Positions 7,973 to 25,817 are shown, numbered from the stretch's first letter. The stretch: DNA of 64,000 nt from an uncultured Desulfobacterales bacterium (GCA_947259495.1 CAMYLV010000016.1:44505-108504); one strand, 5' to 3'. Notes: generated from the letters alone by a model not told the origin. Numbers and translations: made by a program.

Positions 7973-8040
7973 GGAAATTCAGAAGCAACTAATATGGGCT
8001 TATACCCAAATCGATGGGGTTTAGTCAATCATAATCGAGA
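7973..8040 (+). repeat. Island-boundary direct repeat, copy a
   Basis: The core TTATACCCAAATCGATGGGGTTTAGTCAAT (8000-8029) is identical 30/30 to 25788-25817. It also resembles 22998-23040. Confidence 0.75.
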
Positions 8041-8101
8041 ATAACGATGGGTGGTGATTTACTGAAAGACTGTCGAAAAAGTTCAAACATTTAGTTAACA
8101 T

Positions 8102-8497
8102 CTATTTTAATATTGCGTTCTGAATATACCCTTGCGTTTTACGGGGGTAAGGTTTTCGATGATTTAGACTAAATCTGCGTTCTGACCGTATTTTTCTTGC
8201 TACTTGGCTTCTTCGGTCAAACCCTTTTCTACGGTCCCTGCCCAATCTTTTTTCTGGGAAATAAGTTATACAAAAAAATTTCCGCCTATCCTTTCCTGAA
8301 CGGGTTCCACCATTATCTGTCAGCTTTAATTTCCTGGTCGCCAATATCTGGTCTTTTTTAAGTACACTAATGATATATTTCAATTTTTTCCGAATTGTTT
8401 TGGCATGCATTTTTTTATGTTTGGATAAAACGTAACCACAATATTGACATTTATGCATCCCTTCTTGCGGTAGCTTACATCTTGGACAGTTTTTCAT
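8102..8497 (-). CDS. Zinc-ribbon protein with basic [DE]RR-repeat tail
   Basis: N-terminal CPRC...CQYC. Repeated GKDRRK, GRDRRKGFDRR and SERR motifs. The motif is shared with 24140..24355. Confidence 0.5.
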   Translation of the reverse strand: MKNCPRCKLPQEGMHKCQYCGYVLSKHKKMHAKTIRKKLKYIISVLKKDQILATRKLKLTDNGGTRSGKDRRKFFCITYFPEKRLGRDRRKGFDRRSQVARKIRSERRFSLNHRKPYPRKTQGYIQNAILK

Positions 8498-9110
8498 TTT
8501 TGCTAATGCTTTTTTTAAAAAGAGAGGGTATGATTTTCCACTAATTGAGGCTAACTCTACTACCTGATTACCTTTCTAATAATGGCAGAGATGACGATCA
8601 AAACCAATCCAAGCAATATCATCGACATAGTTTCTGGCTCCAAAATAGGTGGTGTTTGGATAAACTGTCAGTGTTACTTCTGAATTTGAAAAGGGAATTG
8701 GATTTGTGACTTATGAGGAGAAAGTTAAAATTTAATTCAATTTCATTAAATGCCTGAAAATCTATTCAGCCACACGATGAACCACAAAAATTCGAAACTC
8801 AAATTCAATTAAGCAACGGTAGGATTAATTAAATAAAAATGGTAAAGGATGTCAAGTAAAAAGCTGAGAGCTAATAAAAATTTAACAATATTAACAAATA
8901 GTTATGTAGTAATCTAAATATATAGTTATATTGTTTTCTTTGGATAAAGAAATTTTCTATATTGCATTAAATGAAAATTCAAATTTATACAGGGCTTTTA
9001 GATGCCTTGATTAGCTCCTCTTAGCGGACTATCATCTTCCTCTTTTTGAGCAACAGGCTGTATAATCAAACCACAGATACATTGAGAAGCTACCAGTTAT
9101 CACAATAAAG

Positions 9111-9181
9111 GAAATTATTGCAGATACCAAATGGATATCACAGGAATTTTAGCGCTCTGATAGTTGTACTTTGTTGGAAGT
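9111..9181 (+). repeat. Island intergenic repeat family, copy C1
   Basis: Matches 19584-19654 at 66 of 71 positions (GAAATTATTGCAGATAYCAAATG.ATATCACA.GAATTTTAGCGC.CTGATAGTTGTACTTTGTTGGA.GT). Confidence 0.75.
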
Positions 9182-9366
9182 ATAAAAGGTTTTGGAATTG
9201 CAAAGAAACCCGCGATACACAGAAAAAGCGCAAGGTTTAGCAGTGATAAAACAGACTTAACTTGACAATTGCAAATAATAGGTAATGCGTTCTCTTCTGG
9301 GGTCATTCAACAATTTTAAGAAGGTATCATTTACCTGCTTTTCCAGATGCTCCGTTCAGATTATCA

Positions 9367-9876
9367 CTACTTCTCGATAACCATTGTGCCAGCCATTTTA
9401 TCGCCTAGTCTTACCCCTTTCTCATCAGAGAAGATCTTAATAATTTCGATGATAACTAGGATAAAAACAGCAATTCCAATCAGAATATCAATGATCCAGC
9501 CAAGAATTGGTATGAATAAGAAGAACATCATCATGGGACCAAGAGCGAACATCCAGTTTCTTTTCGCAGATGCAGCATAATCGATCTTAGATGTTGGGTC
9601 TTCAATATTTACTACAGATAGTTGCAGCAATTTCTTCCCAATACTTTTATACTCAAGAGCTTCGATAGGTAGAGCATCTCGAAAGAGCATATAAAAAGCC
9701 CCAATAATTCCACCAACAAAAGGTATAAACCCTACAATTATAGAAGCCACAGCATCGATGACAAATGCTATTATCCGCTTAACTGGGTCAGCTTTTGTTA
9801 GTGTGGCATTATTGATCTTTGCTTCATTGGTTTCAGGTTTCTCCTCTTTTGCCTGGACTTCTTTTTCCTCGTTCAT
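9367..9876 (-). CDS. RDD-family membrane protein
   Basis: KRIIAFVIDAV...LFRD...LGDKMAGTMV with 3 hydrophobic segments. The ATG at 9876 follows GGGAGGA. Confidence 0.65.
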   Translation of the reverse strand: MNEEKEVQAKEEKPETNEAKINNATLTKADPVKRIIAFVIDAVASIIVGFIPFVGGIIGAFYMLFRDALPIEALEYKSIGKKLLQLSVVNIEDPTSKIDYAASAKRNWMFALGPMMMFFLFIPILGWIIDILIGIAVFILVIIEIIKIFSDEKGVRLGDKMAGTMVIEK

Positions 9877-10029
9877 AAGACATCCTCCCTGCTGAATACT
9901 TTTTTGTGGACGATTTAAAGGCAATCTCAAAAATGCATCTAACGCCCAATGGCCCACGGATTGTTCCCCAGAATTGAAATGCTCATTTCTCGTGGCAAGA
10001 TGTGGCTCAATTGTCTTTGACCCAATTTC

Positions 10030-11565
10030 CTAGCTTTTTTTATTTAAGCGTTTTATTTCATTCTGCCAGTACTTCATAATATTAGACCCCATAGAGCCAG
10101 CAGCAGTATTAATTTCTGATTTGATATTCTCCTCCATGTTGAGAGGGGTAAATTTAACAGTACCTGTTGCCGGCGAAGCGACAGTTTGTCCTGAGGCCAT
10201 GTCAAATGCCCTGACGGAATAGGCCACCGTTGTGAGCTCCTGGATCCGCCCATAGTATTTTAGCTTCATAGCTCCAGCACGACGTATTTTCGCCAAGAGC
10301 AATATATTCGCCTTATGTTTCGGAACAAATTGTTTGATAGTATACCAAGTCATTGGCAAATCGCCATATTGCGCTTTTTCCATAAGTACGGGTATTTCAG
10401 CAATAGAAATTACTCTCAAACCGCTATCAATCAAACATGTTTCAAGGTGGGCATGAAAAATCGGAATCACGTTTTCATCCCCCGAGACCACCACCAGTGC
10501 GGTAGGAACTTTTGGTAATACCGGGACTACCTGTTTTTTCGTTTGATCGGTATGCGCTTTCAATTGCTCAAGCTCCCCACGTTCATGCTCAATTCTGTCC
10601 GCCTCAGCAAATAAGTGTTTTTTCTCCGCTTCCGGTTCAGGCTCTGCTGTAATGTATTGACTGAATTGGACCGGACGCTTTAATACAAATACAAAATCCC
10701 CCTTGTCCAACTTTGGGTTGTTAATTTTTCCAAATTGGGGATGCTGGGCTTTGTGGGAATAATTGATTACTTTTTCCTGAAGGTATGAACCAAGTTCCTC
10801 TCCGGTGACATAGCCGTCCCGATTGAAATCGGCATAGCCATCCTTGATACCCTGGATAAAACAGATCTTAAACACCGATCGATCGGGCACTTGCTCGTTC
10901 TCTCTGCCTGCGGTAATAAACTCCCTGACCGGTGCGGCGATTTTTTCCTCGATATATTCTGTAGGCGCAGCCCGCACCATGGTAAAGATTGCACCAGAAA
11001 AACATGAATCAAAAACCATCAACACATGCTTGGCCCGGATACGTTTGGCTACGGTTTCAATTTGACGCATATCGATGGCGCGCCGCATAAAGTTTGTTTC
11101 ATCTTGAGTCGGGCGAGGGGCGTCCACCGGAACGATGTAGCCTAATTTTGTACCGTCGGCTTCTTCGAGTGTATGACCATGACCCGAGAACCAAAAAAGA
11201 ACACCCTTGTCTTTTACCTTGCCGGGGCCCGTTATCAGCTTATTCAATGCGTTATCCAAACGGTCCCAATCAGGGTCTTCAAGCAAGTCAACCTGCCAAC
11301 CCATCTCTTTGAGTGTGATGGCAATCTCGCGGGCATCATTTACTGGATTGGGTAGTCTGGGCCAACCGGCTCTGTAATCTGAGCAACCCACTATCAGTGC
11401 ATAATAACCAGAGTAAAGTGATATCTGCTGGGGAGAACCTGAATGGGTCTTGGCCTTAACGAAGATGCCTCTGGAAGTAGCATATATAGGAAGTGTAACG
11501 AACACAAAACTGATGACAATTAAAAATAGACAAGCACCCAGAACTCTTGTTTGACTGAAGATCAT
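10030..11565 (-). CDS. Caspase-like (peptidase C14) protein with N-terminal signal/anchor and uncharacterised C-terminal domain
   Basis: A catalytic His/Cys dyad context is present (FWFSGHGH and MVFDSCFSG). The N-terminus is hydrophobic. Confidence 0.8.
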   Translation of the reverse strand: MIFSQTRVLGACLFLIVISFVFVTLPIYATSRGIFVKAKTHSGSPQQISLYSGYYALIVGCSDYRAGWPRLPNPVNDAREIAITLKEMGWQVDLLEDPDWDRLDNALNKLITGPGKVKDKGVLFWFSGHGHTLEEADGTKLGYIVPVDAPRPTQDETNFMRRAIDMRQIETVAKRIRAKHVLMVFDSCFSGAIFTMVRAAPTEYIEEKIAAPVREFITAGRENEQVPDRSVFKICFIQGIKDGYADFNRDGYVTGEELGSYLQEKVINYSHKAQHPQFGKINNPKLDKGDFVFVLKRPVQFSQYITAEPEPEAEKKHLFAEADRIEHERGELEQLKAHTDQTKKQVVPVLPKVPTALVVVSGDENVIPIFHAHLETCLIDSGLRVISIAEIPVLMEKAQYGDLPMTWYTIKQFVPKHKANILLLAKIRRAGAMKLKYYGRIQELTTVAYSVRAFDMASGQTVASPATGTVKFTPLNMEENIKSEINTAAGSMGSNIMKYWQNEIKRLNKKS

Positions 11566-11864
11566 TTGTCCCCCTCTTTTATGTTATTATAGAAGAGTTT
11601 TGCCGAACTAAAAAATCTTAAAAGGACAAATTTGTCTTGATAACAATCTTATAGTCTATTAAACTGACAAGGTCAATTGAATCGTAAAAATAAACCTCAA
11701 AAGCTCGATTACCACACCTTGTGGCACAACTCGATATCATACTCGAATGTTGGCAAGCTATCTGCAACTACAACAAGTCCCTAATACCTGAATCTGAGCC
11801 GCTTATTTATTTGTCGATCAACTTCAATCGAGCTGACTATCATTTAAAATGAAAGGGGGAGATT

Positions 11865-12881
11865 ATGAAAAGGCGTAAATGTTGGGCTGCAATTGGATGT
11901 ATCGTAATGTTTTTTGTAGCGGGCCTGCTTTTTCATGGATGCAAAACGATTCAGCCTAAGCCCGAAGCGAAAGTCACTGAAGCGGGGGGACCTTCTATTG
12001 AAGAAGCCCAGAGTGCAGCCTACGGCGGCCCTATGGCAAGAATTGCCGTATCGCGATTCACTGACAAGACCGGAAAAGGTTGGTGGAGCCGTGATGTCGG
12101 CGATGGTATGGCTGACATGTTGGCCACGGCGCTTTTCCACACCAACCGCTACATTGTGCTGGAGCGGCAGCAACTGCGAGATGTTCTCCGGGAGCAGGAT
12201 CTGGGGGCATCCGGAAGAGTCAAACAGCAAACGGCCGCACCTATCGGCGAAATTGAGGGAGCAGAGCTTTTGATCACTGGCGCTGTGACCGAGTTTGAAG
12301 GTGCCGCTTCCGGTACCAAGGGCGGTTTAGGCGGCTGGGGAAGCGGAGTGGTTGGAGCTGTTTTAGGGGCTTATAAAAAATCGCACATGGCGATTGACGT
12401 GCGTGTCATCGATACAAAGACCTCCCGAATTGTAGCTGTTACCTCTGTAGAAGGATCTGCAACGGACATCGGTGGCTTGGGGGCTTTAGGAGGCGCTGTC
12501 GGTGGTGGAGCCTTAGGGGGTGCTTTGGGTGGTTGGTCAAAGACCCCAACCGAGAAAGCGTTGCGAATCTGTATAAAAAATTCGGTTGATTTTATTGTCA
12601 GTAAAACACCTGCCCAATACTACCATTTTGGCTCTGGTGGAACGGCAGTTCAACCTACATCAGCAACGCCGGCATCGACTGCTCCTCAGTCACAGGAGCC
12701 GTCTGTTCAGGTGACAGGTTCTTCGGTAAACATTCGTTCCGGACCGGGAACAAGTCACGATATAATCGGCAGTGTGAGGCGCGGAGATCGCCTGGTTCTC
12801 CTGGGCGAAAGCGGAAATTGGTTTCAGGTGCGCCTGCCCAATGGAAAAGTAGGATATATTATCAATAAGCTTTGTAAATAA
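11865..12881 (+). CDS. CsgG-like lipoprotein with C-terminal bacterial SH3 domain
   Basis: Lipobox LLFHGC. CsgG-like IAVSRFTDKTG...LERQQLRDVLREQDL...LLITGAVTEFE. Gly-rich loop. SH3b-like VNIRSGPGTSHDIIGSV...GNWFQV. Confidence 0.7.
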   Translation: MKRRKCWAAIGCIVMFFVAGLLFHGCKTIQPKPEAKVTEAGGPSIEEAQSAAYGGPMARIAVSRFTDKTGKGWWSRDVGDGMADMLATALFHTNRYIVLERQQLRDVLREQDLGASGRVKQQTAAPIGEIEGAELLITGAVTEFEGAASGTKGGLGGWGSGVVGAVLGAYKKSHMAIDVRVIDTKTSRIVAVTSVEGSATDIGGLGALGGAVGGGALGGALGGWSKTPTEKALRICIKNSVDFIVSKTPAQYYHFGSGGTAVQPTSATPASTAPQSQEPSVQVTGSSVNIRSGPGTSHDIIGSVRRGDRLVLLGESGNWFQVRLPNGKVGYIINKLCK

Positions 12882-12976
12882 GCCCTCGAGCTAGCTTTGT
12901 TGTTTTGCCTATCGCGTTTTTCCATCTTGTGTCAAACAGGGAGCCCGAACAATGCGGCTAAGTTGTGATTTAATTT

Positions 12977-13024
12977 AAATATCACAGATATTTTCAGAAT
13001 TGATATTTACGACATTGTTGGAGT
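12977..13024 (+). repeat. Island repeat family, partial copy C7
   Basis: AAATATCACAGATATTTTCAGAATTGATATTTACGACATTGTTGGAGTT aligns to the right half of C1, including the GTTGGAG box. Confidence 0.45.
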
Positions 13025-13043
13025 TATCTGTAGACCAGCGGTG

Positions 13044-13075
13044 AATAAAAAGGCAGAGCCAATATTGACTCTGCC
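13044..13075 (-). terminator. Rho-independent terminator candidate downstream of 13116..13595
   Basis: On the minus strand: GGCAGAG-N10-CTCTGCC followed by TTTTTATT. Confidence 0.55.
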
Positions 13076-13115
13076 CCAAAAATCTATAATGACCGACCTC
13101 CTATATATTTTTAAT

Positions 13116-13595
13116 TTATTCAGATTTAGGCAATTCAAATGTCCCTTTTATTATAATGCAATTTTGAAAAGTTCCCGGAGCGATAGATTTGCCACGCTGG
13201 AGCATACTCCATGTACCACCGCCTTTAATGTTCTCCCATTTGCCGGTACCCAATAAAAATTTCCATTCACCACCATTACCATTACCATCCCATCTTACAA
13301 CATTTATATCCCCATTAAGATACATGTATTTACAATACCCGCTCTGCTTTATTTCATCACCTGTTCTTTCGAATATACCCGCACCTATTTCGGAGACATT
13401 GTGAAGCATTTCCGAATTCGTATTGCTTCGAAGCATTCCTTTTAGTTCAAGACCTATAATCATCAATTCTTTGCTATTGTGAACCATAGTGGCTGTCCCT
13501 GATCTACAGGCCATTGATTCGAAAGGGTCTGAAGCCTGAACGGCTGGGATGAAAACGAAAATAGCGAGAAGTGTAATTAAAAATGATCGAATCAT
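13116..13595 (-). CDS. Secreted hypothetical protein
   Basis: Signal peptide MIRSFLITLLAIFVFIPAVQA. AAAGGAGG lies upstream of the ATG. Confidence 0.6.
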   Translation of the reverse strand: MIRSFLITLLAIFVFIPAVQASDPFESMACRSGTATMVHNSKELMIIGLELKGMLRSNTNSEMLHNVSEIGAGIFERTGDEIKQSGYCKYMYLNGDINVVRWDGNGNGGEWKFLLGTGKWENIKGGGTWSMLQRGKSIAPGTFQNCIIIKGTFELPKSE

Positions 13596-13698
13596 AGAGC
13601 GCCTCCTTTCATTTGATTATCAAAAATGTTTTTCTTCAAAAGGCTATTCAGAATCCCAACAGGATTGACAACCTCTTGTTGGGAGAAGGGTTGGCAAA

Positions 13699-13779
13699 AT
13701 TTGAGTGGTTTCTCCATTGAATCTTTACCTGATTGTTAGGTTAAAGTTTAAGGGAAACCAGTTTCTATTTCAGCAGGAA
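13699..13779 (-). promoter_or_regulatory. Conserved leader motif, copy U1 (candidate cis-regulatory RNA or operator region)
   Basis: About 88% identical by eye to 17547-17626. It lies 104-184 nt upstream of the 13595 start. Nested stems: GGTTTC/GAAACC and CTTTAACCT/AGGTAAAG. Confidence 0.5.
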
Positions 13780-13963
13780 AAGTATTTAGAAGTTGAGAAT
13801 CGATTCGACGATGAGTAGGAGTAGCCGATAAGAATTTATTAGAACTAACAACACGTGTGAGATTGAGCTTCAGATGAGTTCAATATTAAAGTTCAAATAT
13901 TATGGACACCATGTAATGTCAATAAAATTCAAGTAAATATATTGAGAATACATGGGTTTTGCC

Positions 13964-14031
13964 GAAATTTCAGATACCATTTGAGTATCACAGGTTTTTT
14001 TGGATTTCAAATGTTTGAATACGTTGGAGAT
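13964..14031 (+). repeat. Island repeat family, copy C3
   Basis: CAGATACCATTTGAGTATCACAGG...CGTTGGAGAT has the same box order as C1/C2. It lies directly 3' of the S41 gene. Confidence 0.55.
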
Positions 14032-14041
14032 ATTCCAAATT

Positions 14042-15037
14042 TTAATCTGAATCATTCCGATTTATAATATCCTCTTGAATCAAGTTCTTGATTCTTTCCA
14101 TTTCAACATCTTTACCAAGTCGATAATCATCTATTGTTCGAGATACCAGAATATCCGGTATTACTCCTCGATCTGGATTTTCACCTGGCAGTGTGTAAAT
14201 AGCTAAAGGAATAGAACCTTTTAATCTACTGTTTGAGAGCTTTGCCGTTACTGGGTCGCTATTAAAGCTTATTCTACCGGCAGTTTCTCTCCCAATTACT
14301 AACCCAAATTCATTGGCCTTGAAAACTGCTGCGAAAACCACCCCAGCAGAAAATGTTTTTTCAGAAATTAGAAGAAATACTTTCCCTTTAAATTTATTCG
14401 ACGCCTCATAAGGCACTCTCATTCTATGATTAACAGCTTCTATGTAGTCACCATTCTTTGCATTAGCTAAATGATTGCCAGCTTTTCCAGCATAGATACT
14501 GTTACGCATTATTTCACTAACTTTAAACTCGAATAGTTTTGCAATTTGGTATTCTGAAGGTGTTAAATTATCAAGAAGATAGAATCCCCAATAACCACTC
14601 CCGCCGCGATTTTCCCTAATGTCAATAACCAAATAAGAAGACTCAGCATATTTATTGAAAAATGAGTCTATAAATTGTTTATAGCTCTCAGCTTTTCCAT
14701 AACTGAAACCTGGCATTTTTAGGACTGGAATTTCTTCATCTTGGATAAAAAACGAATATTTACTGTATTTGTTGTCATGCTGAGTTACAGTTTTGTTAAA
14801 CTCTTTTAAAGTAACAGATTTGAGTTCTGTGATCCTAACTTTTGAGTCGAGTTTATATTTAACCTTCCAAGGCGGTGTGACTTTCAAATACTTAAGAAGC
14901 AGTATATGAAAATAGTCCTCAAAAAAAGACCATTTAACATGATCTAAAGAGGTATGAAATAATTGAGAGCACTCTTTAAACAGTGAAGTGAACCCATCCG
15001 ATTGCACAAAAATTAGTTGAGTGTTAAGAGGGGTCAC
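14042..15037 (-). CDS. S41-family (tail-specific-like) serine peptidase
   Basis: LVIDIRENRGGSG and ISEKTFSAGVVFA (Ser nucleophile context), plus GRETAG. The start is uncertain (GTG) and no signal peptide is evident. Confidence 0.75.
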   Translation of the reverse strand: MTPLNTQLIFVQSDGFTSLFKECSQLFHTSLDHVKWSFFEDYFHILLLKYLKVTPPWKVKYKLDSKVRITELKSVTLKEFNKTVTQHDNKYSKYSFFIQDEEIPVLKMPGFSYGKAESYKQFIDSFFNKYAESSYLVIDIRENRGGSGYWGFYLLDNLTPSEYQIAKLFEFKVSEIMRNSIYAGKAGNHLANAKNGDYIEAVNHRMRVPYEASNKFKGKVFLLISEKTFSAGVVFAAVFKANEFGLVIGRETAGRISFNSDPVTAKLSNSRLKGSIPLAIYTLPGENPDRGVIPDILVSRTIDDYRLGKDVEMERIKNLIQEDIINRNDSD

Positions 15038-15132
15038 ACTTTTTTAAAAAAAATCGAACAGATGCTGTGAATGACGCTTGAGGTTGAGAATTGCAAATTA
15101 TTTGACTGAAATCCAAATACGACAAAGGTACC

Positions 15133-15208
15133 GATACATTGAGAATACATGCATTTTGGCATTTTTACAGATACGAAATGGATGTCTGGATTTGTAAGCT
15201 CACTGGTA
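15133..15208 (+). repeat. Island repeat family, degenerate copy C6
   Basis: GATACATTGAGAATACATG...CAGATACGAAATGGATGTCTGG shares its left boxes with 13940-13990 and 9078-9145. Confidence 0.35.
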
Positions 15209-15569
15209 TCTGAATTGTTTGTAAAATCCAACAGAAAATATCGCATTAAATTTCAGCCATTACATAGGAGAATAGTACGATAATCAGTGCGCTTTTTCAA
15301 AATTTATTTTTAATATTAATAATTCTTTATATGAGCATCTCGGCCTGCGACAATTTTAAAAATGGGTGTCAATTCGCTTCTCCTGTCAGAATTTTTTTGG
15401 AGCTGTTGTGGATATTTCAATGGCAAGGAGTTTGAGCGTAAGAACAGGAAGGCGGGTCACTTTGATAACAAGATTTTCAATGCTTGCCATAGAAGCCATA
15501 CAATGAGGATTATAATCCAACAGATAATTGTTACGTGGAGTATTTTTAACATTCTGACTACTGAATTTC

Positions 15570-15803
15570 CTAACTGAATATAAGTTTATCTAATTGATGT
15601 TCTGAAATATGGGCAAGACGGCCAATCTCTTGTGCTTGCATAATAAGTTCAAAGGGAGGCTCCTTGCCCTTGTAGCGAAGTTTTGAAATTTTTAAGACTA
15701 AATTCAAATAATCACGTTTGAGTTTCATAAAATTTTTGTCGTCTGTTTCCATTTTGATTTTCTGCAAATTTAGGTGTTTTGGGTGACCCCCAAGCGAGGC
15801 CAC
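15570..15803 (-). CDS. Small helical hypothetical protein (start uncertain, possibly Met at 15752)
   Basis: Supported by the ORF only. No family was recognised. Confidence 0.3.
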   Translation of the reverse strand: MASLGGHPKHLNLQKIKMETDDKNFMKLKRDYLNLVLKISKLRYKGKEPPFELIMQAQEIGRLAHISEHQLDKLIFS

Positions 15804-15955
15804 TCACGGACAAAAGCCATGGGCATGGCGCTTATTGATCATGGTATGTCCATATAAAATATCGGGAATTTTTGGTTAGAACTTGAATTAGATTTGCCAA
15901 CGATCTGATCAACCGGGGCATTTAAAGGTATTGGGTATTGGGGGGATGTTATTGG

Positions 15956-16507
15956 GGGGTCGGGCCGCGCTAACAATTCGACATTATACGACATACATCA
16001 TAAAATCAAGCCGTTTAGGCCTTAGAAGCCCCATTTTAGGGGCAAAATCACCCTTCTAAGAAATAGTTTAATTGACTTCAAAAGTCATATGCGGTGGCTG
16101 CCGGCTTAGTCCAAAGATGAATTGAAGATAGCGCATCATTAATGGATTGAGGAGGAATTGAAAAAATCACAGCTGGTTCGCCAGAGCAAGGGGACGCAAA
16201 GCATTGCTGTTGGAGAAAAATCGTTTGTTGAACAAATCAAAAACCGTCTTGGTATTCGTTCTAAAGGTTGGAAGATTCTCGAAGATGAAGGTGACTACCA
16301 GTTATGTGACCGTCAGACCGGTTATTGCGACAGCGCCCAATTTATTAATTCAAATTCTTTTTATTGGGATTTAGACAATAAACCCGCAGACTTCCCTATT
16401 CCTTAAAGAGCCCATTTTACCCATAGAATGGCATTGCTAAGCCCAAAAATCGGTCCTTTTTTTAACTCTTTTTATTAATTATCAGACACTTACTGCGGCC
16501 CGACCCC
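15956..16507. mobile_element. Decayed small element bounded by perfect 13-bp inverted repeats around a COG1943 transposase remnant
   Basis: GGGGTCGGGCCGC (15956-15968) and GCGGCCCGACCCC (16495-16507). The outer flanks are word repeats (GGTATTGGGTATTGGGG and CATTTTG x4). Confidence 0.45.
16158..16406 (+). pseudogene. C-terminal remnant of an IS200-like/COG1943 (Y1, RAYT-type) transposase
   Basis: QSIAVGEKSFVEQIKNRLGIRSKGWKI...YQL...NSFYWD matches the conserved C-terminal tail of this family as I remember it. The catalytic N-terminal part is absent. Confidence 0.55.
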
Positions 16508-17626: not shown

Positions 17627-17888
17627 TGTGTCGCTTAGAGTGAGAGGATAAATTCATGATGAAAGCTAATTTCAGGGCAAAATGAAAAAGCGCTGTTTTC
17701 CTGTTGCCACATTGTGGTATTTTTGTCAAGCTAATTTTGGATCATTGTAGGTCAGGTCTTAAATCGAGAGGATTATGAATTATCATTGAACTGGCATTGA
17801 AAATGATGTTGATGAGAAGGGTGAAGAGGAATTTTATTTTCTTTGAATAAGTTCGTTTTTATTTTTCCAGTTATTTTAACTTGAATTG

Positions 17889-19538
17889 TTAATTCTGCAT
17901 TTTAATGATCACCGAGGTTATGTCATCTTCTATTCTTGACTCACTTATAAATTTATCCAAGATGTCAAAAATTGCATCCAATATTTGTGTTGCGTCTGAA
18001 GATGAGTTTTGTCGAATTGCAGATAGGATTGGCTCTTTGCCTAACATCTCTCCATTTTTATTGCGCGCCTCCCAGATTCCATCTGTACTGAGAAAAACGA
18101 TTTGACCATTTGAAAAATCGGTTTCTTTATTATCCTCGTAGACCCATTCGGCATCCAAACCAAGAGCTATTCCCGATCCTCCAAGTTCACTGAATGAATC
18201 TGAGCCAGGATCATAAACAATGGCGGGATCATGTCCCGCCCGCACCCAATCAAGGCGTTTGGATTCTGTATCAAGAGTTAAAAAAAACATTGTCATAAAT
18301 TGCCCGGAATCTTCAACATCTTTAACCAACTGACGGTTCACATCAGAAATGATATTGGCCGTGCTGCCCGGTAAAAATACCCGCTGCCGCAATGAAGAAC
18401 GAACAGTGGCCATAAGTAATGCAGAAGAAATACCATGCCCTGAGACATCGCCAATCGCAACCCCAATTTTCTGCTCATCATTATCTTCAATAGATATAAA
18501 ATCATAATAATCACCACCGGTTTCATCGCAGTAAACGCTTTTTCCGGCTATATCGATCCCGTTAACCTTTATATTACTTTTTGGAAGAAGATTTTGTTGA
18601 ACCTCCTTTGCTAAATTAAGAGACTGCTGCATTCTTTCACGTTCCTTCAGACCCGCGGTCATTTCATTGATCACATCACCCGTATACCCAATTTCATCAT
18701 TAGAGGTAACTTGCACTTTTTTGTCAAAGCGGCCGTTTCTTACCCCCCGCAGGGTAATGATGATCTCCTTGAAGGGTATCGTCAGATTTCTGCCTACCAG
18801 CATCGTCAAACATATGCCAAAACCGATAAATATGAATGTATTAGTGAATATAACAGGCCTTAGCTGCTGTATTGCCAATGCCGGGTCCGAGTATTTTAGG
18901 GAGATTCTATGAAAAAGATGCAAAATTGTTAAGAGGGGAATCAGATTGCAAGCAAAAAGCATTGCAACCAGCCGGGTGCGGATCCGGATGCGCAGGGTCT
19001 TCGGGATGGCAGTAAGTCCACCTTCCGGGAAAAAATGCGGTGCCAGTCGCTTTTGTGAAATATGCTCCAACAAAAAAAAAGCAACAATCACGGTGATAGA
19101 GCCAGTGCTCAGGCTTAATAACAACGCGCGTTGCATCAAATCCGATCCTAAACCAAGGCTCCAGTAAATAGCCGTCCAAATTATAGCCGCCAACATCCAC
19201 ATACTCAAATCCAGGGCCATGAGAAAAAAGGGTTCGTTGAGCACTTTTTGGCGGGCCCTGTTCTCCAGTTCCGCCGACACTTCTGAGCGTTTGAATTTGG
19301 CATTTAGATATAACCGAATGGGTCTTTCATATAGCAGAGTCATCACCACGACAAATAAAAAGGCCAATGGCGTAAAAATTGTATCCATCACATCGACAGC
19401 AGTAAATTTCCATATATCTGCAGGCAACGGTTCCGCCCTGAACATCAGCTTATGAACAAATACAACGGAAAATAAATTGGCAAATGCATTCGCAAAAATC
19501 ATTTCGTTTTTTAGGTGGAAAAGTTTAAATTTTGTCAT
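17889..19538 (-). CDS. Membrane-bound PP2C/SpoIIE-family phosphatase with HAMP linker
   Basis: Multiple N-terminal TM segments. HAMP-like IPFKEIIITLRGVRNGRFDKKV. PP2C motifs GGDYYDF, GDVSGHG and DGIWEA. Confidence 0.85.
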   Translation of the reverse strand: MTKFKLFHLKNEMIFANAFANLFSVVFVHKLMFRAEPLPADIWKFTAVDVMDTIFTPLAFLFVVVMTLLYERPIRLYLNAKFKRSEVSAELENRARQKVLNEPFFLMALDLSMWMLAAIIWTAIYWSLGLGSDLMQRALLLSLSTGSITVIVAFFLLEHISQKRLAPHFFPEGGLTAIPKTLRIRIRTRLVAMLFACNLIPLLTILHLFHRISLKYSDPALAIQQLRPVIFTNTFIFIGFGICLTMLVGRNLTIPFKEIIITLRGVRNGRFDKKVQVTSNDEIGYTGDVINEMTAGLKERERMQQSLNLAKEVQQNLLPKSNIKVNGIDIAGKSVYCDETGGDYYDFISIEDNDEQKIGVAIGDVSGHGISSALLMATVRSSLRQRVFLPGSTANIISDVNRQLVKDVEDSGQFMTMFFLTLDTESKRLDWVRAGHDPAIVYDPGSDSFSELGGSGIALGLDAEWVYEDNKETDFSNGQIVFLSTDGIWEARNKNGEMLGKEPILSAIRQNSSSDATQILDAIFDILDKFISESRIEDDITSVIIKMQN

Positions 19539-19583
19539 GATACTGCTCTCCTACAAGCTGATAATTGAATACCAGCATGGAAC

Positions 19584-19654
19584 GAAATTATTGCAGATAT
19601 CAAATGTATATCACAAGAATTTTAGCGCCCTGATAGTTGTACTTTGTTGGAGGT
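19584..19654 (+). repeat. Island repeat family, copy C2
   Basis: Matches C1 (9111-9181) at 66 of 71 positions. It fills most of the 144-bp spacer between two minus-strand genes. Confidence 0.75.
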
Positions 19655-19682
19655 GTCTGCATTTCAATTATATGATGACTGG

Positions 19683-21143
19683 CTATTGGGGAAGTTGGTT
19701 CCCATACCATTTCCAATGTCCGTTATCTTTAATTAGCTTACTGCCGGTCATAAAGAGGGCTTCAAAATATTTATCTTTAAGCCAAACATCAATTTTAGCC
19801 TCATCGCCTTCAGGCTCAAACTTGGTGATGATAATTTTAGCCTCAGAAGTATAAGATAAAGTTCCTTCTAAAAATTTTAAAGCCATTTGTTTGGTAACGC
19901 CATAATGAAGAAATCGATCCGAAATTAAATCGGCCATTGTCACCACATCTTTATTAAATCTAGCTTGATTATAATCTGTTATGAATGCTTTTACATCAGT
20001 GGGCAATTCCACGGCTTTTAGTGGTTTTTTCGGTGGTCTTTTCCTTTGAACAGAGACTGCAACTAAATCAAATAAAGGACTATAATGAATTGAAGTTGGG
20101 GGATGAGGCTGGGCTGTTTTCGATGTTACAGCAATAACAAGGTCAAGTTCCGGAACGACCACTATAAATTGCCCCCGCCTTCCCCAAGCCCTGAAACTGC
20201 TGCAGCCATCGACTTTCTTCACCCACCATTGATACCCGTATCCAAACGAACCATATATTGGCGAGCTGAAAGTCTTTATCTGTTGATCGGTGGATTCTTT
20301 CACCCAATATTCAGAGACAATAGATTGACCGTTCCAATATCCATTATTCAAGTACAGGAAACCGATTTTTGCTAAATCTCGTGCTGAGAGGCCCAAACCG
20401 AAACCGCCAATGTAGTATCCTTGTGGGTCTTGATGCCAATAGGCTGATTGTATCCCTAACGGTTCAAAAAGGTTTCTCTTTGCAAAATCCAAGGTGCTGG
20501 ATTTAGTCGACTTGGACAGAATTATGGACAGAAGATGTGATGTTGATGAATTGTAATTAAATACATCCCCCGGATTTTTTTCCTGCGGAAGTTGAATCGT
20601 GAATTTTGCCCAGTTCGAGGAAGTATACCAGAACCGCATTACAGGTCCCCGATCGTTCCACCTAAAACCTGCACTCATTGTCAAAAGGTGTCTAAGACTG
20701 ATCTTCTTTTTCCTCGGATCAAGGTCCTCTGTGATATATTCAGGAAAAAATTCGGTTAGTTTTTGATCCACGCTTTTAAGATAACCTTTGTCCAGTGCTA
20801 TACCAATTAGGGCTGAGGTAACACTTTTGGTAACTGAATGAACGACAGCGTATTTTTCAGGGCTTCCCCAAGAGTAGTATTTCTCAAAAACTAAATAGCC
20901 GTTCTTAACAACCAACAAACTGAAAGCATCGGGAAGTCTATTTTGGACAAATTCGTCCGCTATCCTTAGCTTAGCAGAATCCATACCCTGAATCTCCGGG
21001 GTAGAAGTCCTCCAACCGCTGGTAGGCCAGTATTCGCGCTTTTTTGGTTGTTCGCAAAATGCATATTCAGTCAAGAAGGCAAAAAGGGAGAAAGTAAGAA
21101 TACAAAATGTTTTTTTACTATAACTCAAATTAAATATTTTCAT
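19683..21143 (-). CDS. Beta-lactamase-fold serine hydrolase with C-terminal extra domain
   Basis: SxxK motif HSVTKSV. N-terminal signal-like segment. The ATG at 21143 follows AAAGGAGA. Confidence 0.8.
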   Translation of the reverse strand: MKIFNLSYSKKTFCILTFSLFAFLTEYAFCEQPKKREYWPTSGWRTSTPEIQGMDSAKLRIADEFVQNRLPDAFSLLVVKNGYLVFEKYYSWGSPEKYAVVHSVTKSVTSALIGIALDKGYLKSVDQKLTEFFPEYITEDLDPRKKKISLRHLLTMSAGFRWNDRGPVMRFWYTSSNWAKFTIQLPQEKNPGDVFNYNSSTSHLLSIILSKSTKSSTLDFAKRNLFEPLGIQSAYWHQDPQGYYIGGFGLGLSARDLAKIGFLYLNNGYWNGQSIVSEYWVKESTDQQIKTFSSPIYGSFGYGYQWWVKKVDGCSSFRAWGRRGQFIVVVPELDLVIAVTSKTAQPHPPTSIHYSPLFDLVAVSVQRKRPPKKPLKAVELPTDVKAFITDYNQARFNKDVVTMADLISDRFLHYGVTKQMALKFLEGTLSYTSEAKIIITKFEPEGDEAKIDVWLKDKYFEALFMTGSKLIKDNGHWKWYGNQLPQ

Positions 21144-21302
21144 TTTTTTCTCCTTTCTGCTGAAAATATGACTCACAAAACATGTTATTTTGTCTTAAAC
21201 ATCATAGTGATGCTAATTTGCGATGAGAATAACAAAGTTTTGCCAATTTTGCCGATATGATTTGGATATATGATACTTACCACGCAATCAACTGTCTTTT
21301 CT

Positions 21303-21377
21303 AATTTCTGTCATCTGCGATTAAAATAGAATATCACAAAAAATTTCAGAACTGTTATCTGCCGTTTAGTTGGAGGT
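21303..21377 (+). repeat. Island repeat family, diverged copy C4
   Basis: ...AATATCACAAAAAATTTCAGAACTGTTATCTGCCGTTTAGTTGGAGGT shares the ATATCACA box and the GTTGGAGGT box. Confidence 0.45.
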
Positions 21378-21637
21378 ATTACGAATTTCCAAATCGAAAA
21401 GGTTTGATACAAATAGTTTGGCCTTATCACAAAAATGACCCAAAAAGGCCAACCACAACATATGGCAGGATTCTCCGCAGATTAACGGCGGCGGGCGTTG
21501 AGTACGCCTCGCCACAAACTTTTGTGGGGCCTTGCGCAGCAGAAAAAAGTCTCATTTCTGAATCGGACACTCATTAGTGCCAAGATCCTTTCGGGGATGA
21601 GCACTAATTAAAACCTTCATTTAGAAACATAACCAGT

Positions 21638-22660
21638 TTAGGCTGTCATATTGACTATTGTCCGACCCTTGTGTTTGCCTTGTAACATACGGTCGATGGC
21701 CTGATCCAGATCGACCAGGGTAATTTCTTCCACGACCGTTTCCATCATTGGGATTTTCCATTCATCGGCGAGTTTCTCCCAAGTCTTGAGCCGGTTCGGC
21801 ATCGGGCAATTCTGGGAATCGATACCCACGAGGCTGACCCCACGCAGGATGAAGGGATATACATTGATCGGCAACTCAGGTGATGCCACATTACCGCGGT
21901 GGCCAGGATATCTCCTCCTACCGTGTCGATGCTGCCTGCCCAGCGAGACTTGTGAAGCGGACGACCACTTTGATCTGTGGCCTCTTCGATGCTGATAATA
22001 CGCTGTGCGCCGATTTCTTTTAGATATTCCGACTCATCTACCAAACCATTGACGGCAACGACCGTGTAACCCAATTTTGACAAAATTGCCACGGCAATGC
22101 TGCCAACGCCGCCGCTGGCGCCTGATACCAGCACCTCACCATGTTCCGGCAAAATGCTCCCATGAACGGTCAGTTGAAAGACTGACAGGGCCGCCGTAAA
22201 CCCGGCCGTTCCATAGCACATGGCCTCTCTTGACGTCAGTCCCTTGGGCAGGGGAACCACCCATTGGCCGGGTACCCGAATATATTGGCCAAACCCCCCT
22301 GCCGTGTTCATGCCTAAATCATAACTGGTGAACCCGAATATATTGGCCAAACCCCCCTGCCGTGTTCATGCCTAAATCATAACTGGTGACGATAACATCA
22401 TCTCTGGGTTTAAGGGCGATATCAGTGCTTTCCACCACCACACCTGCTGCGTCGATGCCGGGTGTATGGGGATAGCTGCGTGTTACGCCTTTATTGCCGC
22501 TGGCTGATAACGCATCTTTGTAATTCAAAGATGAATAGTGCACCTCGACCACAACGTCTCCCGGGGGAAGGTCGTCTATGGTTTTGTTGAGGATCTGACG
22601 CGTGTATTTTTTGTCGTTAGTTTCTTCTACTACCAAGGCCTTAAATAATTCATCTGTCAT
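21638..22660 (-). pseudogene. YhdH/AcuI-type NADPH:quinone (acrylyl-CoA) oxidoreductase, disrupted twice
   Basis: Three collinear ORF pieces (22319..22672, 21745..22350, 21638..21889). SYDLGMNTAGGFGQYIRV is encoded twice. The first break is a 58-bp duplication. The second break, near 21890, removes part of the conserved region before PFILRGV. Confidence 0.8.
22274..22389. repeat. Perfect 58-bp tandem duplication inside the oxidoreductase pseudogene
   Basis: 22274-22331 and 22332-22389 are identical when read base by base. 58 is not a multiple of 3, so the duplication shifts the frame. Confidence 0.9.
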
Positions 22661-22778
22661 TTTAACCTCCACAAGTGTCTGGGTTATAGATATACTTTTT
22701 GCCGAACGAGCTCAATTGCTGATCTGGGTTAAATATTTCACAAGTGTACTAAGAGTCATGTTTAAATTTTGCACGGAT

Positions 22779-22841
22779 TTATCCGATGACATCTGCGCTG
22801 AGAATCGCTGCGAGCTTACGCTTAAAACCTTCATCTGCCAT
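22779..22841 (-). pseudogene. 20-codon N-terminal remnant of a class III adenylate/guanylate cyclase-type protein
   Basis: GGAGG-N7-ATG, then MADEGFKRKLAAILSADVIG*. KLAAILSADVVGYS is the usual start of the cyclase homology domain in such proteins. Confidence 0.4.
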
Positions 22842-22945
22842 GTGCCACCTCCGTTTATAAGGTTTTAAACTTTGGAATTCAGTATGTTGATTATTCACAG
22901 AAACGCAGTATCAGACGAGCAACAAGATTCGATTCAAGGATTTGC

Positions 22946-23040
22946 GAACCATTTCAGGTCAGGTGGAATAGAAGCTTCAGAAATTGTTAAATAGACTTTA
23001 TAGACAAATGTATGGGATTTAGTCAATCATTATTGAGAGT
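22946..23040 (+). repeat. Island direct repeat, internal copy b
   Basis: Its right part matches copy a at about 36 of 43 positions. Its left part (GAACCATTTCAGGTCAGGTGGAATAGAAGCTTCAGAAATTGTT) parallels 25736-25778. Confidence 0.65.
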
Positions 23041-23141
23041 TCGGAAAGGTGCTGATAATTTACAAAAAACCAAATATCAGTCAGTTGCAGATTTATTGAG
23101 ATTACATTCAAAATCACAAAGTTCCAGATATCAAACGCAAT

Positions 23142-23190
23142 GAAATTATTGCAGATACATAACAGATACCATAATGTATACCTTAATTCG
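23142..23190 (+). repeat. Island repeat family, rearranged copy C5
   Basis: GAAATTATTGCAGATAC, then a reiterated CAGATACC box. It is immediately upstream of the recombinase remnant. Confidence 0.4.
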
Positions 23191-23222
23191 AAAAAAATAC
23201 GCACCGATGCTATTCGGTGGTA

Positions 23223-23387
23223 ATGGAGAAATTCTGTGAGGTGTTTGGAGATCATCAACTTGGTGGGCCTACTGTTGATGATGTTATGGGCTTCCTAACT
23301 CAGGTAACGGATGGATGCAAGACTCAAACAAAACGCATCGGCTCTGCCCACCTTTCTGCATTTTTCAATTTCACTGAAATTATTTAA
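23223..23387 (+). pseudogene. N-terminal (SAM-like domain) remnant of a tyrosine recombinase/integrase
   Basis: A 54-codon ORF MEKFCEVFGDHQLGGPTVDDVMGFLTQVTDGCKTQTKRIGSAHLSAFFNF has the pattern of integrase N-terminal domains. The catalytic domain is missing. Confidence 0.45.
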
Positions 23388-24139
23388 ATCTTAACCGGGC
23401 ACTATTGAGGGGCGGTAAGTGTTAACCTCTATTATTTAATTATTTTATTCGTTTTGTAAAATCTATGGTTCAGGTAATGATCAATCTTGTAAGGTTTTGT
23501 GCCAACCTTATTTTTAATCATTTCATCAACCAGCATATTTTGATTATTCGTTAAAAAGATAACTTTTTGCCTGGAAAGGGCTCCGCAACTTCTCAGGTTT
23601 GTAGATCTCGAGGCTTGCAGGCCTGCTTTTGACTGGTTTTTAGAAATACATTTCGATATATAATTCTTATAGCATTTATCTAACAATCCAATATTAAAGC
23701 GTGGCACCAGGTTTTGATATATCTGAGTGTAGTGAAAATATTGCCAACACCCTTGAACTTGTGAAACATTGCATTATCATTATTGGCGACTTCTGGGATG
23801 TTTGTGCATTTTTTCTGCTGAGAAATTAACAACGGCATCTTGGAAGCTACATCCATTAGGGGTGGTTCAAATTGAACTGCCCCTTTTTTTGTCCATATTG
23901 ACATTCTATCGTCCCCAAGAGAATACAATCAAAAAGGCCGGGCCGACCAGGCCTGGTAGGTAAACCCTGTTGCCATCTGCCGTGCAAATGCTGTAACCTC
24001 ATCGTAATATTCTGTCTCTCTACAATTGACTGGGCAATATGTTGCCTATTTCATCTTTCTCCTCCTCCTTAACGCGGTGGCCCATATGATTGATGGGCCG
24101 CCCGATAGAAATTGTATCAAACTGCACAGGAGGTCAAAA

Positions 24140-24355
24140 ATGCCACAGGTTCTTCGTATAATTCCAGAAAGACGCACCGGCAAAGACAGACGCAGAATCT
24201 TTAGTCTGCACCGTTTTTTCCACAAAGGTCCTGAAAGAAGAAAGGCGTTGCACGACCGAAGGTTGCAGAAAGAAAGGCGAGATGGTTGGGTTAGAATCAG
24301 CAGATGGTCAAGTACCAAATTGCATGATTTAAAAATCTCAAGATACTTGCATTAG
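24140..24355 (+). CDS. Small basic [DE]RR-repeat protein
   Basis: AGGAGG-N6-ATG at 24140. ERRTGKDRRR, PERRKALHDRR and KERRDGW repeats. Shares the motif with 8102..8497. Confidence 0.45.
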   Translation: MPQVLRIIPERRTGKDRRRIFSLHRFFHKGPERRKALHDRRLQKERRDGWVRISRWSSTKLHDLKISRYLH

Positions 24356-24527
24356 AAATAATCCAAAGCCCACCATCATTTTTAAGGTCTTTACCCACCA
24401 TGATTTCCCCTAAAATGAGATTCCACAGTGACACTGCTTCTAAAAGACTTTCACATGTAGGCGTTCTGTTGTCACAAACCGAGCTACCTACCGTAAAGTT
24501 GTCATGCTCATTAATTTTGCAGGTGAG

Positions 24528-24941
24528 CTACATTTGCAGCTTTTGGTCCTGAACATCATGGGTGTCATTGTCACCAGCGGCAGAACGCAACAGAGCGTTG
24601 CGCTGGTCAGGATCAAGGTACTCTGAAGACCAATCAAGAGGTGTTATACCTTGGGTTGATGGTTGGGTGAGACTGGCGCCATTTTCAATGAGCAACTGGG
24701 CGACCTCTACACGACCGTTTCGCACGGCAAAATGAAGCGGTGTCAAACCAAACCGTGAGTCCAGGGCGTTCACAAGGTGTCCCTCTTTAAGTAGCTTGCG
24801 AACCTTATTGATTTTGTCGGTCTTGGCTGCTTCATGAAGTTGGCAATTCTTCAGATATTTGTAAATCGAGAAACCCTCCCTAAGGAGAAAAACAGCAAGG
24901 ACTACAACGATAATAGGCAAAATTTTTATAAAGTTCTCCAT
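24528..24941 (-). CDS. Membrane-anchored ankyrin-repeat protein
   Basis: N-terminal TM segment. LTPLHFAVRNGRVEVAQLLIENGASL is an ankyrin consensus. Confidence 0.8.
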   Translation of the reverse strand: MENFIKILPIIVVVLAVFLLREGFSIYKYLKNCQLHEAAKTDKINKVRKLLKEGHLVNALDSRFGLTPLHFAVRNGRVEVAQLLIENGASLTQPSTQGITPLDWSSEYLDPDQRNALLRSAAGDNDTHDVQDQKLQM

Positions 24942-25064
24942 TGATCAACTCCCAAAACAACCCTTACAATCTGACATGTCGGCAAATGAATTCAGGGGTG
25001 AGAAGATTTCTAATCGAATTTAGTTTTGGGCTCTTGCCGATATCTGATTTTCGAGTAGATCGAA

Positions 25065-25619
25065 TTACCATTTATAGCGCACCCTGTTATAGCGCATCTT
25101 GCTGTAGCGCATACTGGACCAATCGTCGAAACTTACACCGATTCCATGGGTGCTGCTCCAAATAATTTTTCCACCCAGTTGAATATTTTTGTAGGAAAAT
25201 GGACTAAAGAAAGCGAGAGTTATTTTCTGACCGATGGGAAGCGGATCTTCAATATCGATATAAACGCCGGTCGAATTTACATCAAGAATTAAACCGTTGT
25301 AGCTTTGTTTTTCAAGCTTACACTTGACCGGTATCAAACAGAGTTTTCTGGGTAATGTGCGTTCGTCAATGATAGATTTAGCGTATTCTAATAATAATAA
25401 CTGTTCTCTCTCTGACATATTCAAAATAAGCTCTAACAAACGTGAAAAGGTCGTGTTGTACCGCATGAATTTTGGTTTGCCAGTAAGCTCCTCTGAACTA
25501 TTCATAATTGACACTTTCTTGTAAGGATTATTTGTAAGTTTTCTTTTCTTAGTTTCTGAGAAATCCTTCTGGTCAAAAACATTACCAGATCGTCTGAGCG
25601 CTCTATATTTTTTGCTCAT
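25065..25619 (-). CDS. PilZ-domain protein
   Basis: RTLPRK (RxxxR) is followed by LILDVNSTGVYI. The C-terminal half looks like a beta-barrel. Confidence 0.6.
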   Translation of the reverse strand: MSKKYRALRRSGNVFDQKDFSETKKRKLTNNPYKKVSIMNSSEELTGKPKFMRYNTTFSRLLELILNMSEREQLLLLEYAKSIIDERTLPRKLCLIPVKCKLEKQSYNGLILDVNSTGVYIDIEDPLPIGQKITLAFFSPFSYKNIQLGGKIIWSSTHGIGVSFDDWSSMRYSKMRYNRVRYKW

Positions 25620-25735
25620 AATGATTTTTCATCATATCGTGTCTCATATGTTAAAGTAACAGATCAACTCATTGTGCAGATTATCCGAAGGAGCGCAAGA
25701 ACCAGATGAAAACCGCAGTCGATTCTATAGTTGGA

Positions 25736-25817
25736 GAACCATTTCAGATCAGTTGGAGTGGGAGAATCAGAAATTGTTTAGATGCGTTTATACCCAAATC
25801 GATGGGGTTTAGTCAAT
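25736..25817 (+). repeat. Island-boundary direct repeat, copy c
   Basis: The 30-bp core 25788-25817 is identical to 8000-8029. It is preceded by two GTTGGAG boxes (25730-25736, 25752-25758). Confidence 0.75.

Follow-up and report, generated by a model that had tools for sequence, protein, structure and literature searches.

The three direct repeat copies that subdivide an A+T-rich region of a 64,000-nt stretch of DNA from an uncultured Desulfobacterales bacterium (GCA_947259495.1 CAMYLV010000016.1:44505-108504; the whole stretch is called the window here, with positions counted from its first letter) are probably not attachment (att) sites but paralogs of a promoter-leader module from a widespread family of cyclase genes. 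The repeat itself is likely a gene-start region consisting of a putative sigma-70-like promoter and a leader of ~150 nt, as deduced from its position, its orientation, and its match to the promoter hexamers. The surrounding region, which lies between ubiX and a gene for a flavin adenine dinucleotide (FAD) oxidoreductase, is a real accessory insert in which single genes and pseudogenes form a mosaic. The account that we favor with fair confidence is that of a plasticity island which carries several such modules and has been colonized by a small recombinase element, here called element E, so that the repeats would not be the scars of att recombination. An earlier note on this DNA, made from the sequence by itself, had read them as such scars.

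The repeat copies and the genes behind them

The copies, designated a, b, and c, are in register over 99 nt in one orientation at 7931-8029, 22929-23027, and 25719-25817 (repeat family D1), with start-to-start distances of 14,998 and 2,790 nt. Copy a has 66% identity to copy b, and copy c has 76%. The outer two share the exact 30-mer TTATACCCAAATCGATGGGGTTTAGTCAAT, which occurs exactly twice in the window (8000-8029 and 25788-25817) and was absent from 100 dinucleotide-preserving shuffles with up to 3 mismatches permitted. A further left-hand stretch is common to copies b and c, and ~30 nt to the right of the core are common to a and b. The earlier note was therefore accurate in its description of the repeat, including the number, placement, and orientation of the copies, the 30-mer, and the left-hand extension. 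A candidate fourth copy at 16367-16379 (a 13-mer with 1 mismatch) aligned poorly and was taken as chance. A plus-strand coding reading of the repeat (…GLYPNRWGLVN) was also discarded, as the peptide likeness falls in other frames elsewhere.

On the minus strand, the core ATTGACTAAACCCCATCGATTTGGGTATAA was resolved into TTGACT, 18 nt, and TATAAA, and each of the two boxes matches its consensus hexamer at five of six positions. The extent of each copy was set by alignment to the modules of other genomes, whose loci carry L numbers. Copy a (7924..8058, minus strand, subfamily I; blastn to the modules of L020, L008, and others) retains the core at 8029..8000 (TTGACT-N18-TATAAG) and ~30 nt of the upstream region, and its leader has diverged. 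Copy b (22816..23104, minus strand, subfamily II), which is 72% identical over 289 nt to the module of L019, retains the upstream region, the core at 23027..22998, and the complete leader. Copy c (25658..25818, minus strand, subfamily I; blastn to the L008 and L020 modules) has the core at 25817..25788 and ~130 nt of leader and lacks the conserved region upstream of the -35-like box.

Each copy points leftward into a minus-strand unit of its own (SEC-C/NYN for a, stump/quinone pseudogene for b, and PilZ/ankyrin for c), and the common orientation of these units is the reason that the copies are direct repeats. Behind copy a lies a decayed, frameshifted open reading frame (ORF; 7373..7935, minus strand, six-frame translation) with the C-terminal SEC-C motif NDPCPCGSG (7399..7373); its N-terminal fragment has no Pfam match, and the NYN gene comes after it, further downstream of the copy. 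Behind copy b is a cyclase gene stump of 20 codons (22779..22841, minus strand, ATG at 22841), which translates as MADEGFKRKLAAILSADVIG followed by a stop. Its full-length homologues carry PF00211 Guanylate_cyc plus TPR, and a quinone-oxidoreductase pseudogene lies downstream of it. The leader of copy c leads to a PilZ-domain gene (25065..25619, minus strand, Pfam PF07238) that is followed by an ankyrin-repeat gene (24528-24941, Pfam Ank families); here the leader alignment stops ~25 nt short of the PilZ start codon.

The module family in other genomes

Module loci were gathered with the pattern CAAATNNATGGGRTTTAGTCAAT, one genome per species being scanned, and 21 loci were obtained from 18 other Desulfobacterales or Desulfatiglandales metagenome-assembled genomes. 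In the aligned block, ~110 nt precede the -35-like box, and the box pair is followed by the leader of ~150 nt, a GGAGG-type ribosome-binding site, and ATG. The -35-like box is found ~175-190 nt before the start codon (~173-188 nt at the cyclase loci), and the orientation is always that of the gene. At 13 of the 21 loci and at window copy b, the block runs into M(A/T/P/V)(D/E/Q)xGFKRKLT(A/S)ILSAD. The usual partner was thus identified as a class III adenylate/guanylate cyclase-TPR gene with the start MA(D/E)EGFKRKLTAILSADV; PF00211 Guanylate_cyc plus TPR was assigned to the L019 product and likewise to the cyclase beside the L027 integrase. The same leader also stands before other genes, joined at or near the start codon, namely, those for an HD domain protein (L009), an AsmA protein (L021), a zinc ribbon protein (L016), and a small secreted protein of 147 residues without a Pfam match (L002).

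Two subfamilies of the module were distinguished, the GGGTATAAA type, to which copies a and c belong, and the GT(T/C)TATAAA type of copy b. L020, which is from a different species, has the 30-mer of copies a and c without a mismatch; the 30/30 identity of a and c was therefore ascribed to functional conservation, and it dates no duplication. The external loci have one module copy each within 8 kb, with no pairs, and the similarity spans 100-290 nt, also at loci without any integrase.

At L008, a match to the c-di-GMP-I-GGC riboswitch was observed at 5723-5838, ~750 nt upstream of the cyclase module (53.3 bits against a gathering threshold of 59, E value 1e-9). Together with the PilZ gene of copy c and the HD/phosphodiesterase-like protein of L009, this match makes the neighborhood of the module rich in second-messenger genes.

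Proposed pairing between the leader and the cyclase gene

The 3' part of the leader, GUUUGAAACCUU, is complementary to AAGGUUUUAAAC, which represents cyclase codons 4-8 (EGFKR). Of 13 sequences folded for minimum energy, 8 are predicted to form the resulting 12-bp helix, which would enclose both the ribosome-binding site and the AUG. Cells of the helix were paired in 95.5% of cases, as opposed to 25-57% after one side had been slid by 1-3 columns; one of the two strands is constrained by protein coding. These data suggest that the helix would provide translational or stability control, and the joint conservation of the leader and the N terminus would then be explained. Module copies that are fused to genes other than cyclases would have lost this control. 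A local anti-Shine-Dalgarno hairpin (CCUCUG..CGGAGG) was good in subfamily I only, and the leader-coding helix was preferred to it. A sigma-54 reading of the TTGCAGATATC motif was rejected by inspection, the spacing of GG..GC being wrong.

Borders, composition, and empty sites of the island

The accessory island spans 19.6 kb (6280..25873, no strand assigned), as defined by blastn synteny breakpoints against L022 and L111, and is flanked by the convergent 3' ends of ubiX (stop at 6277) and the FAD oxidoreductase gene (stop at 25886). Its G+C content is 0.412 over 6280-25873 (rounded, 0.41), compared with flanking values of 0.512 (left) and 0.493 (right). Values of 0.33-0.47 extend across ~6.3-26 kb, with 12-13 kb excepted. 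The tetranucleotide L1 distance between the island and the rest of the window is 0.302, and same-size chunks of the right flank gave ≤0.069. The A+T-rich zone of the earlier note is borne out by both profiles, as is its beginning to the left of copy a, where the synteny edge lies at 6280.

Identities of 85-86% were found for the nearest homologues of the FAD oxidoreductase. The gene order at L022 is oxidoreductase, a single flavin-reductase gene, and then ubiX-LpdD-UPF0261. At L111-L114, the four contigs inspected of the 24 in the P0022 lineage, the stop codons of the oxidoreductase and ubiX genes are convergent and only 75 nt apart. The similarity of the window DNA to these relatives (blastn, L022 and L111) ends at 25886/25874 and picks up again at 6279, and from these breaks it was concluded that the site holds 75-770 bp in the relatives and 19.6 kb in the window. 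The proposal of an accessory insert between the two genes is therefore upheld. Neither the repeat nor a similar sequence is present in the 75-nt spacer of L111-L114 or in the one-gene spacer of L022. The left edge of the island is 1.65 kb beyond copy a, and the right edge is 56 nt beyond copy c. A tRNA or tmRNA gene was not found in the window, and such a gene was consequently ruled out as the integration target.

The spacer between a radical-SAM-like gene and the FAD oxidoreductase gene (27196-27304 in the window) also varies. An AMP-binding gene is located there in L022 (7557-9990) and a cytochrome c3 gene in L115 (9524-9985) and L116, with nothing in the window or L111. Since this spacer, too, differs among the relatives, both flanks of the oxidoreductase gene are variable spots.

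The recombinase fragment and element E

A truncated tyrosine recombinase N terminus was placed by the earlier note beside the middle copy, and this was confirmed. The fragment (23185..23387, plus strand) corresponds to residues ~17-79 of 278, as determined by tblastn with the L006 integrase, by the family alignment, and by direct sequence comparison; 23190-23372 matches residues 19-79 of the 278-residue L006 recombinase with 51% identity (E value 3e-14). The 5' side lacks ~100 nt, which would hold the 5' untranslated region (UTR), the start codon, and the initial 16 codons, and nothing beyond residue 79 is preserved. An SSV-type split integrase was considered and dismissed, as the window has no C-terminal part at any position. 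The adjoining segment (23095..23185, plus strand) was assigned to the left end of a decayed element E, with the box CAGATTTATTGAGATTAC and the upstream site AAATTATTGCAGATAC..GATACC. It resembles the integrase upstream regions of L025, L042, and L059, and the motif is also found in L006.

The recombinase is Xer-like according to NCBIfam, the best model being NF040815 (XerA-like) with 122 bits (cutoff, 220). The scores with the integron-integrase models were 50.4 bits for TIGR02249 (cutoff, 265) and 31 bits for PRK15417 (cutoff, 435). The family has more than 4,300 homologues at an E value of ≤1e-20, mostly on contigs of 1-2 kb, and 83 recombinase loci were collected for comparison. A cyclase gene or module is located divergently upstream of the integrase only in L006, L027, L040, L063, and the window, which amounts to ~5% of the recombinase loci.

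In L006, L025, L042, and L059, the gene is preceded by ~165 nt and followed by ~110 nt of shared sequence, beyond which the flanks are unrelated. No pair of filled and empty alleles of one locus was found among the loci compared. Judged from these four insertions, by which its ends were set, element E is a unit of ~1.1 kb with one recombinase gene between two related sites. Its plan reads as the left-end box CAGATACGTAGATGATCTAC, the upstream site AAATTATTGCAGATAC-AAAATG-GATAC, the 5' UTR, the gene, a terminator hairpin, the downstream site GATAT-AATTTGA-GTATCTCACGATTTTYAGCC..TGATATGTTGG, and the right end ..ATAGCAG. Other recombinase subfamilies keep the same plan, and at the external loci the right end is in most cases immediately past the stop of a convergent gene. 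Because E has distinct flanking sites of its own, the flagged recombinase fragment was deduced to belong to a separate element and not to the module. At L007, ~194-262 nt upstream of the module, an apparent integrase-less miniature of E was noted in which pieces of the integrase 5' UTR (GTCAAACC…) are joined directly to the right end (GAGTATCACACGGTTTTAGCCGGATTGATATGTTG…CATAGCAG).

E sites within the island

An nhmmer profile for the E site was built solely from 46 external sequences downstream of integrase stop codons. It gave five matches in the window (E values of 2e-6 to 2.5e-4), all on the plus strand and all inside the island, and no match at an E value of ≤10 in 203 kb of controls. The matches are S1 (9123..9192, E value 5.8e-5), S2 (12968..13038, 1.8e-6), S3 (13973..14041, 3.2e-5), S5 (19596..19665, 5e-6; repeat family D4), and S6 (21319..21380, 2.5e-4). 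A degenerate sixth site, S4 (15134..15180, plus strand), consists of the left-end box and TTACAGATACGAAATGGATG; it was detected as repeat family D5 and by motif scan and is below the profile threshold. With or without S4, the island thus has five or six co-oriented sites that lack an integrase and occupy intergenic gaps. S3 ends 1 nt short of the stop codon of an S41 peptidase gene (14042), and S5 ends 18 nt from the stop of a beta-lactamase-like gene (19683), both genes being on the minus strand.

S1 and S5 were recognized as solo sites lacking an integrase gene. S1 spans ~9066-9192 with its left-end box, the whole of S5 spans ~19566-19665, and the two are 92% identical over 74 nt. In a three-way comparison with the integrase-flanking sites, both solos were found to consist of the left half of the upstream site and the right half of the downstream site. 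S1 to S6 fold no better than shuffled sequence (z scores of +1.1 to -1.4), and the attC-like folding considered for them is unsupported by these values.

All of the E sites are on the plus strand, and of the 13 genes in the island, 12 are read from the minus strand. The external loci show the same tendency: 9 of 12 extra E sites point the same way as the integrase-linked site, and the ORFs enclosed by co-oriented sites are all encoded on the strand opposite the integrase. Almost no island genes were found in common with other E-bearing loci. The beta-lactamase-like gene, which lies between S5 and S6, has different neighbors elsewhere, with distant sites in L109 and without sites in L110. A contig with 99.6% identity has the same arrangement as the window, and the similarity of the homologues with 91% identity stops at the borders of the gene. 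A separate observation at L109 (2676-4722) was that a gene for an IS91-type Y2 transposase overlaps one for a 296-residue Phage_int_SAM_4 integrase. This pair adjoins a 160-residue Guanylate_cyc fragment and the 91% homologue of the beta-lactamase-like gene, which is thereby placed in a further mobile-element setting.

Colonization of the island by E and its solos was considered the more likely account of these sites than an integron-like array. E would have colonized the island and would possibly have built part of it. In this weaker form, and for the E-site repeat family only, the integration idea of the earlier note survives, in that site-specific recombination may have shaped the island.

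Evaluation of the interpretations

Several observations weigh against the interpretation of the copies as promoter-leader modules in a plasticity island. A simple sigma-70 scan misses the box pair because TATAAA is without T at position 6, and the sigma factor is uncertain for the same reason. The consensus structure of the whole leader returned by RNAalifold was empty, and the leader helix has no pair that is changed on both sides, that is, no compensatory changes; given these two results, the argument for a role of the RNA is the conserved complementarity. The conservation of the core is partly circular, as the 21 external loci were gathered with a pattern derived from it, and the distribution of the module in the source genome is seen through 64 kb only. 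No recognizable target for the entry of 19.6 kb is present in the spacer. Lastly, three independent copies (copy c, L009, and L021) lose all upstream similarity at one point, immediately 5' of ATTGACT (25817/25818 in the window), where most copies keep ~110 nt of conserved sequence; this unexplained common breakpoint, at the upstream edge of the -35-like box, could be a site of recombination.

The first alternative, which we consider unlikely, is an integron-like array, in which the island would hold the decayed cassettes of a tyrosine recombinase other than IntI, with co-oriented sites of ~70 bp between items of cargo, and the repeat copies would be the 5' ends of cargo units of the cyclase type. 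The recombinase gene itself would be one site-flanked unit. The array is favored by the tight packing, by the plus-strand polarity and intergenic position of the five profile sites, the left-type site by the integrase remnant, and the degenerate site, two of which abut stop codons, as well as by the opposite strand of the island genes and the corresponding polarity at the external loci. Moreover, the L063 cyclase gene with its module lies between two sites, and in L109 the beta-lactamase-like gene lies between two sites of the same polarity. Nevertheless, most integrase loci are solitary, a second site being found in about one-fourth of those with long flanks, and the right end of E is mostly just past the stop of a convergent gene; a target preference combined with uniform gene orientation would give the same picture, so that the polarity is explicable without an array. 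The sites also do not fold like attC, the scores with the integron-integrase models are far below their cutoffs, the units between sites span up to six genes, and the beta-lactamase-like gene also occurs without sites, with homology ending at its borders. It is therefore doubtful that the island is a decayed example of an undescribed integron-like gene-capture system of the Desulfobacterales with a 278-residue Xer-like recombinase, sites of a double-strand type between cargo genes on the opposite strand, and cyclase genes, each with a self-contained promoter-leader, as the commonest cargo. If it were, the cross-species conservation of the module and its three copies here would be explained.

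The second alternative holds that the conserved unit is chiefly a structured RNA, either a riboswitch or a small RNA gene, and that the copies are paralogous RNA genes or cis-regulators for a common ligand or partner. We regard this as improbable. It is in keeping with the conservation of the leader across species and before different genes, with the presence of second-messenger genes downstream (cyclases, PilZ, and HD phosphodiesterase-like), and with the enclosure of the ribosome-binding site by the conserved helix. Against it, no Rfam match was obtained at an E value of ≤1 in window positions 5000-28000 or in the modules of 8 other loci, and the empty consensus structure and the lack of pairs changed on both sides apply here as well. 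In addition, the sole supported helix depends on cyclase codons, of which copies a and c have none and copy b is left with 20.

The third alternative, that of the earlier note, in which the copies are attL, a hybrid site, and attR from two serial integrations (~14.9 kb and ~2.7 kb) by the recombinase beside copy b, accommodates the direct orientation, the perfect 30-mer of the outer copies, the recombinase fragment 160-190 nt from copy b, the proximity of copy c to the right edge, and the sharing of the right side by a and b and of the left side by b and c (the B-O-P'/P-O-P'/P-O-B' pattern), but it was judged very improbable and is already contradicted by the empty sites, in which the single copy expected by the note is absent. 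The repeats also miss the left border of the island; the flank similarities are family-wide, occur in genomes without an integrase, and do not have the form of a short crossover core between unrelated arms; another species has an identical core, and the other loci have a single copy within 8 kb; and the recombinase has distinct flanking sites and adjoins a module at few of its loci. The interpretation of the earlier note is partly supported: the repeat proved to be a dispersed, conserved 5' module at 21 loci elsewhere, contrary to the att reading; the compositional shift of the island and the empty sites are real.

Comparison with known systems

Reused, or "putative mobile," promoters are highly similar upstream regions that precede nonhomologous genes within a genome and across species (PMC3575422). 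The module is like them in preceding cyclase, PilZ, HD protein, AsmA, and zinc-ribbon protein genes. It is unlike them in its length of ~300 nt, inclusive of a 150-nt leader, and in its clear preference for one partner gene, the first codons of which would pair with the leader.

The region has direct repeats in a compositionally deviant accessory insert with an integrase fragment close by, as do att-flanked integrated islands. It differs from them in that the empty site has no copy, the repeats are off the left border, the module is single at many loci, and the integrase is part of a separate small element. The likeness to integrons consists of a tyrosine recombinase, co-oriented short sites between genes of uniform polarity, some of them abutting stops, and a putative strong outward promoter near the recombinase. 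Unlike integrons, which are characterized by IntI, attI, attC, and Pc, the system has a recombinase that scores 50 bits against a cutoff of 265, sites without an attC-like hairpin, a recombinase-adjacent site upstream of the promoter, units of several genes, and recombinase copies that are mostly solitary.

Element E is comparable to insertion sequence (IS) elements and their miniature inverted-repeat transposable elements. Like these, it is multicopy, ~1.1 kb long, and intergenic, with conserved ends, unrelated flanks, and short derivatives devoid of the enzyme. It differs in that its enzyme is a Xer-like "simple" tyrosine recombinase and not a DDE, HUH, or serine transposase and in that its solos look like the products of recombination between two gene-flanking sites. 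In the collection of papers searched, nothing specific was returned on a recombinase element or array of this type.

For annotation, these data carry the warning that perfect direct repeats bracketing a low-G+C island, together with an integrase stump, can mimic att sites; here, only the empty site of the relatives reveals the repeats to be gene-start modules. They also point to a promoter-leader unit of ~300 nt that is common to many Desulfobacterales species and reused before second-messenger genes and to a very abundant single-gene element E whose solo sites are concentrated in the island. Should E be able to move neighboring genes, sulfate reducers would have a new means of shuffling genes.

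Other contents of the island

The island contains several pseudogenes, namely, the cyclase stump, remnants of CMD and SEC-C genes, a transposase-like tail, and the quinone-oxidoreductase gene. The quinone oxidoreductase (ADH_N/ADH_zinc_N) is split into three ORFs (21638-22672) and was deemed a recent pseudogene because a perfect 58-bp tandem duplication within it (22274-22389) shifts the frame. A short ORF at 16158-16406 (plus strand, …SIAVGEKSFVEQIKNRLGIRSKGWKILEDEGDYQL…NSFYWD) resembles the C-terminal tail of COG1943/RayT-like transposases, has no Pfam match, and is probably another gene remnant.

A second pair of direct repeats (13676-13773 and 17524-17621; 98 nt, 84% identical) forms a long imperfect hairpin (z score of -2.5 for the first copy). 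The copies are located just upstream of or across the starts of minus-strand genes, namely, a 159-residue ORF and the CMD remnant. This repeat was absent from the other loci compared and had no Rfam match.

Two small arginine-rich ORFs, at 8102-8497 (minus strand) and 24026-24355 (plus strand), contain repeated G-x-DRR/ERR motifs, and one falls within each of the two "sub-islands" of the earlier note. The former has an N-terminal zinc ribbon, and the repeat part of both is without a Pfam family. Finally, at 10030-12881, a caspase-domain (Peptidase_C14) gene is divergent from a gene for a CsgG-plus-SH3 lipoprotein, the latter lying in the sole island kilobase with a normal G+C content (12-13 kb, 0.517), and this pair may be of a different origin from the rest of the island.

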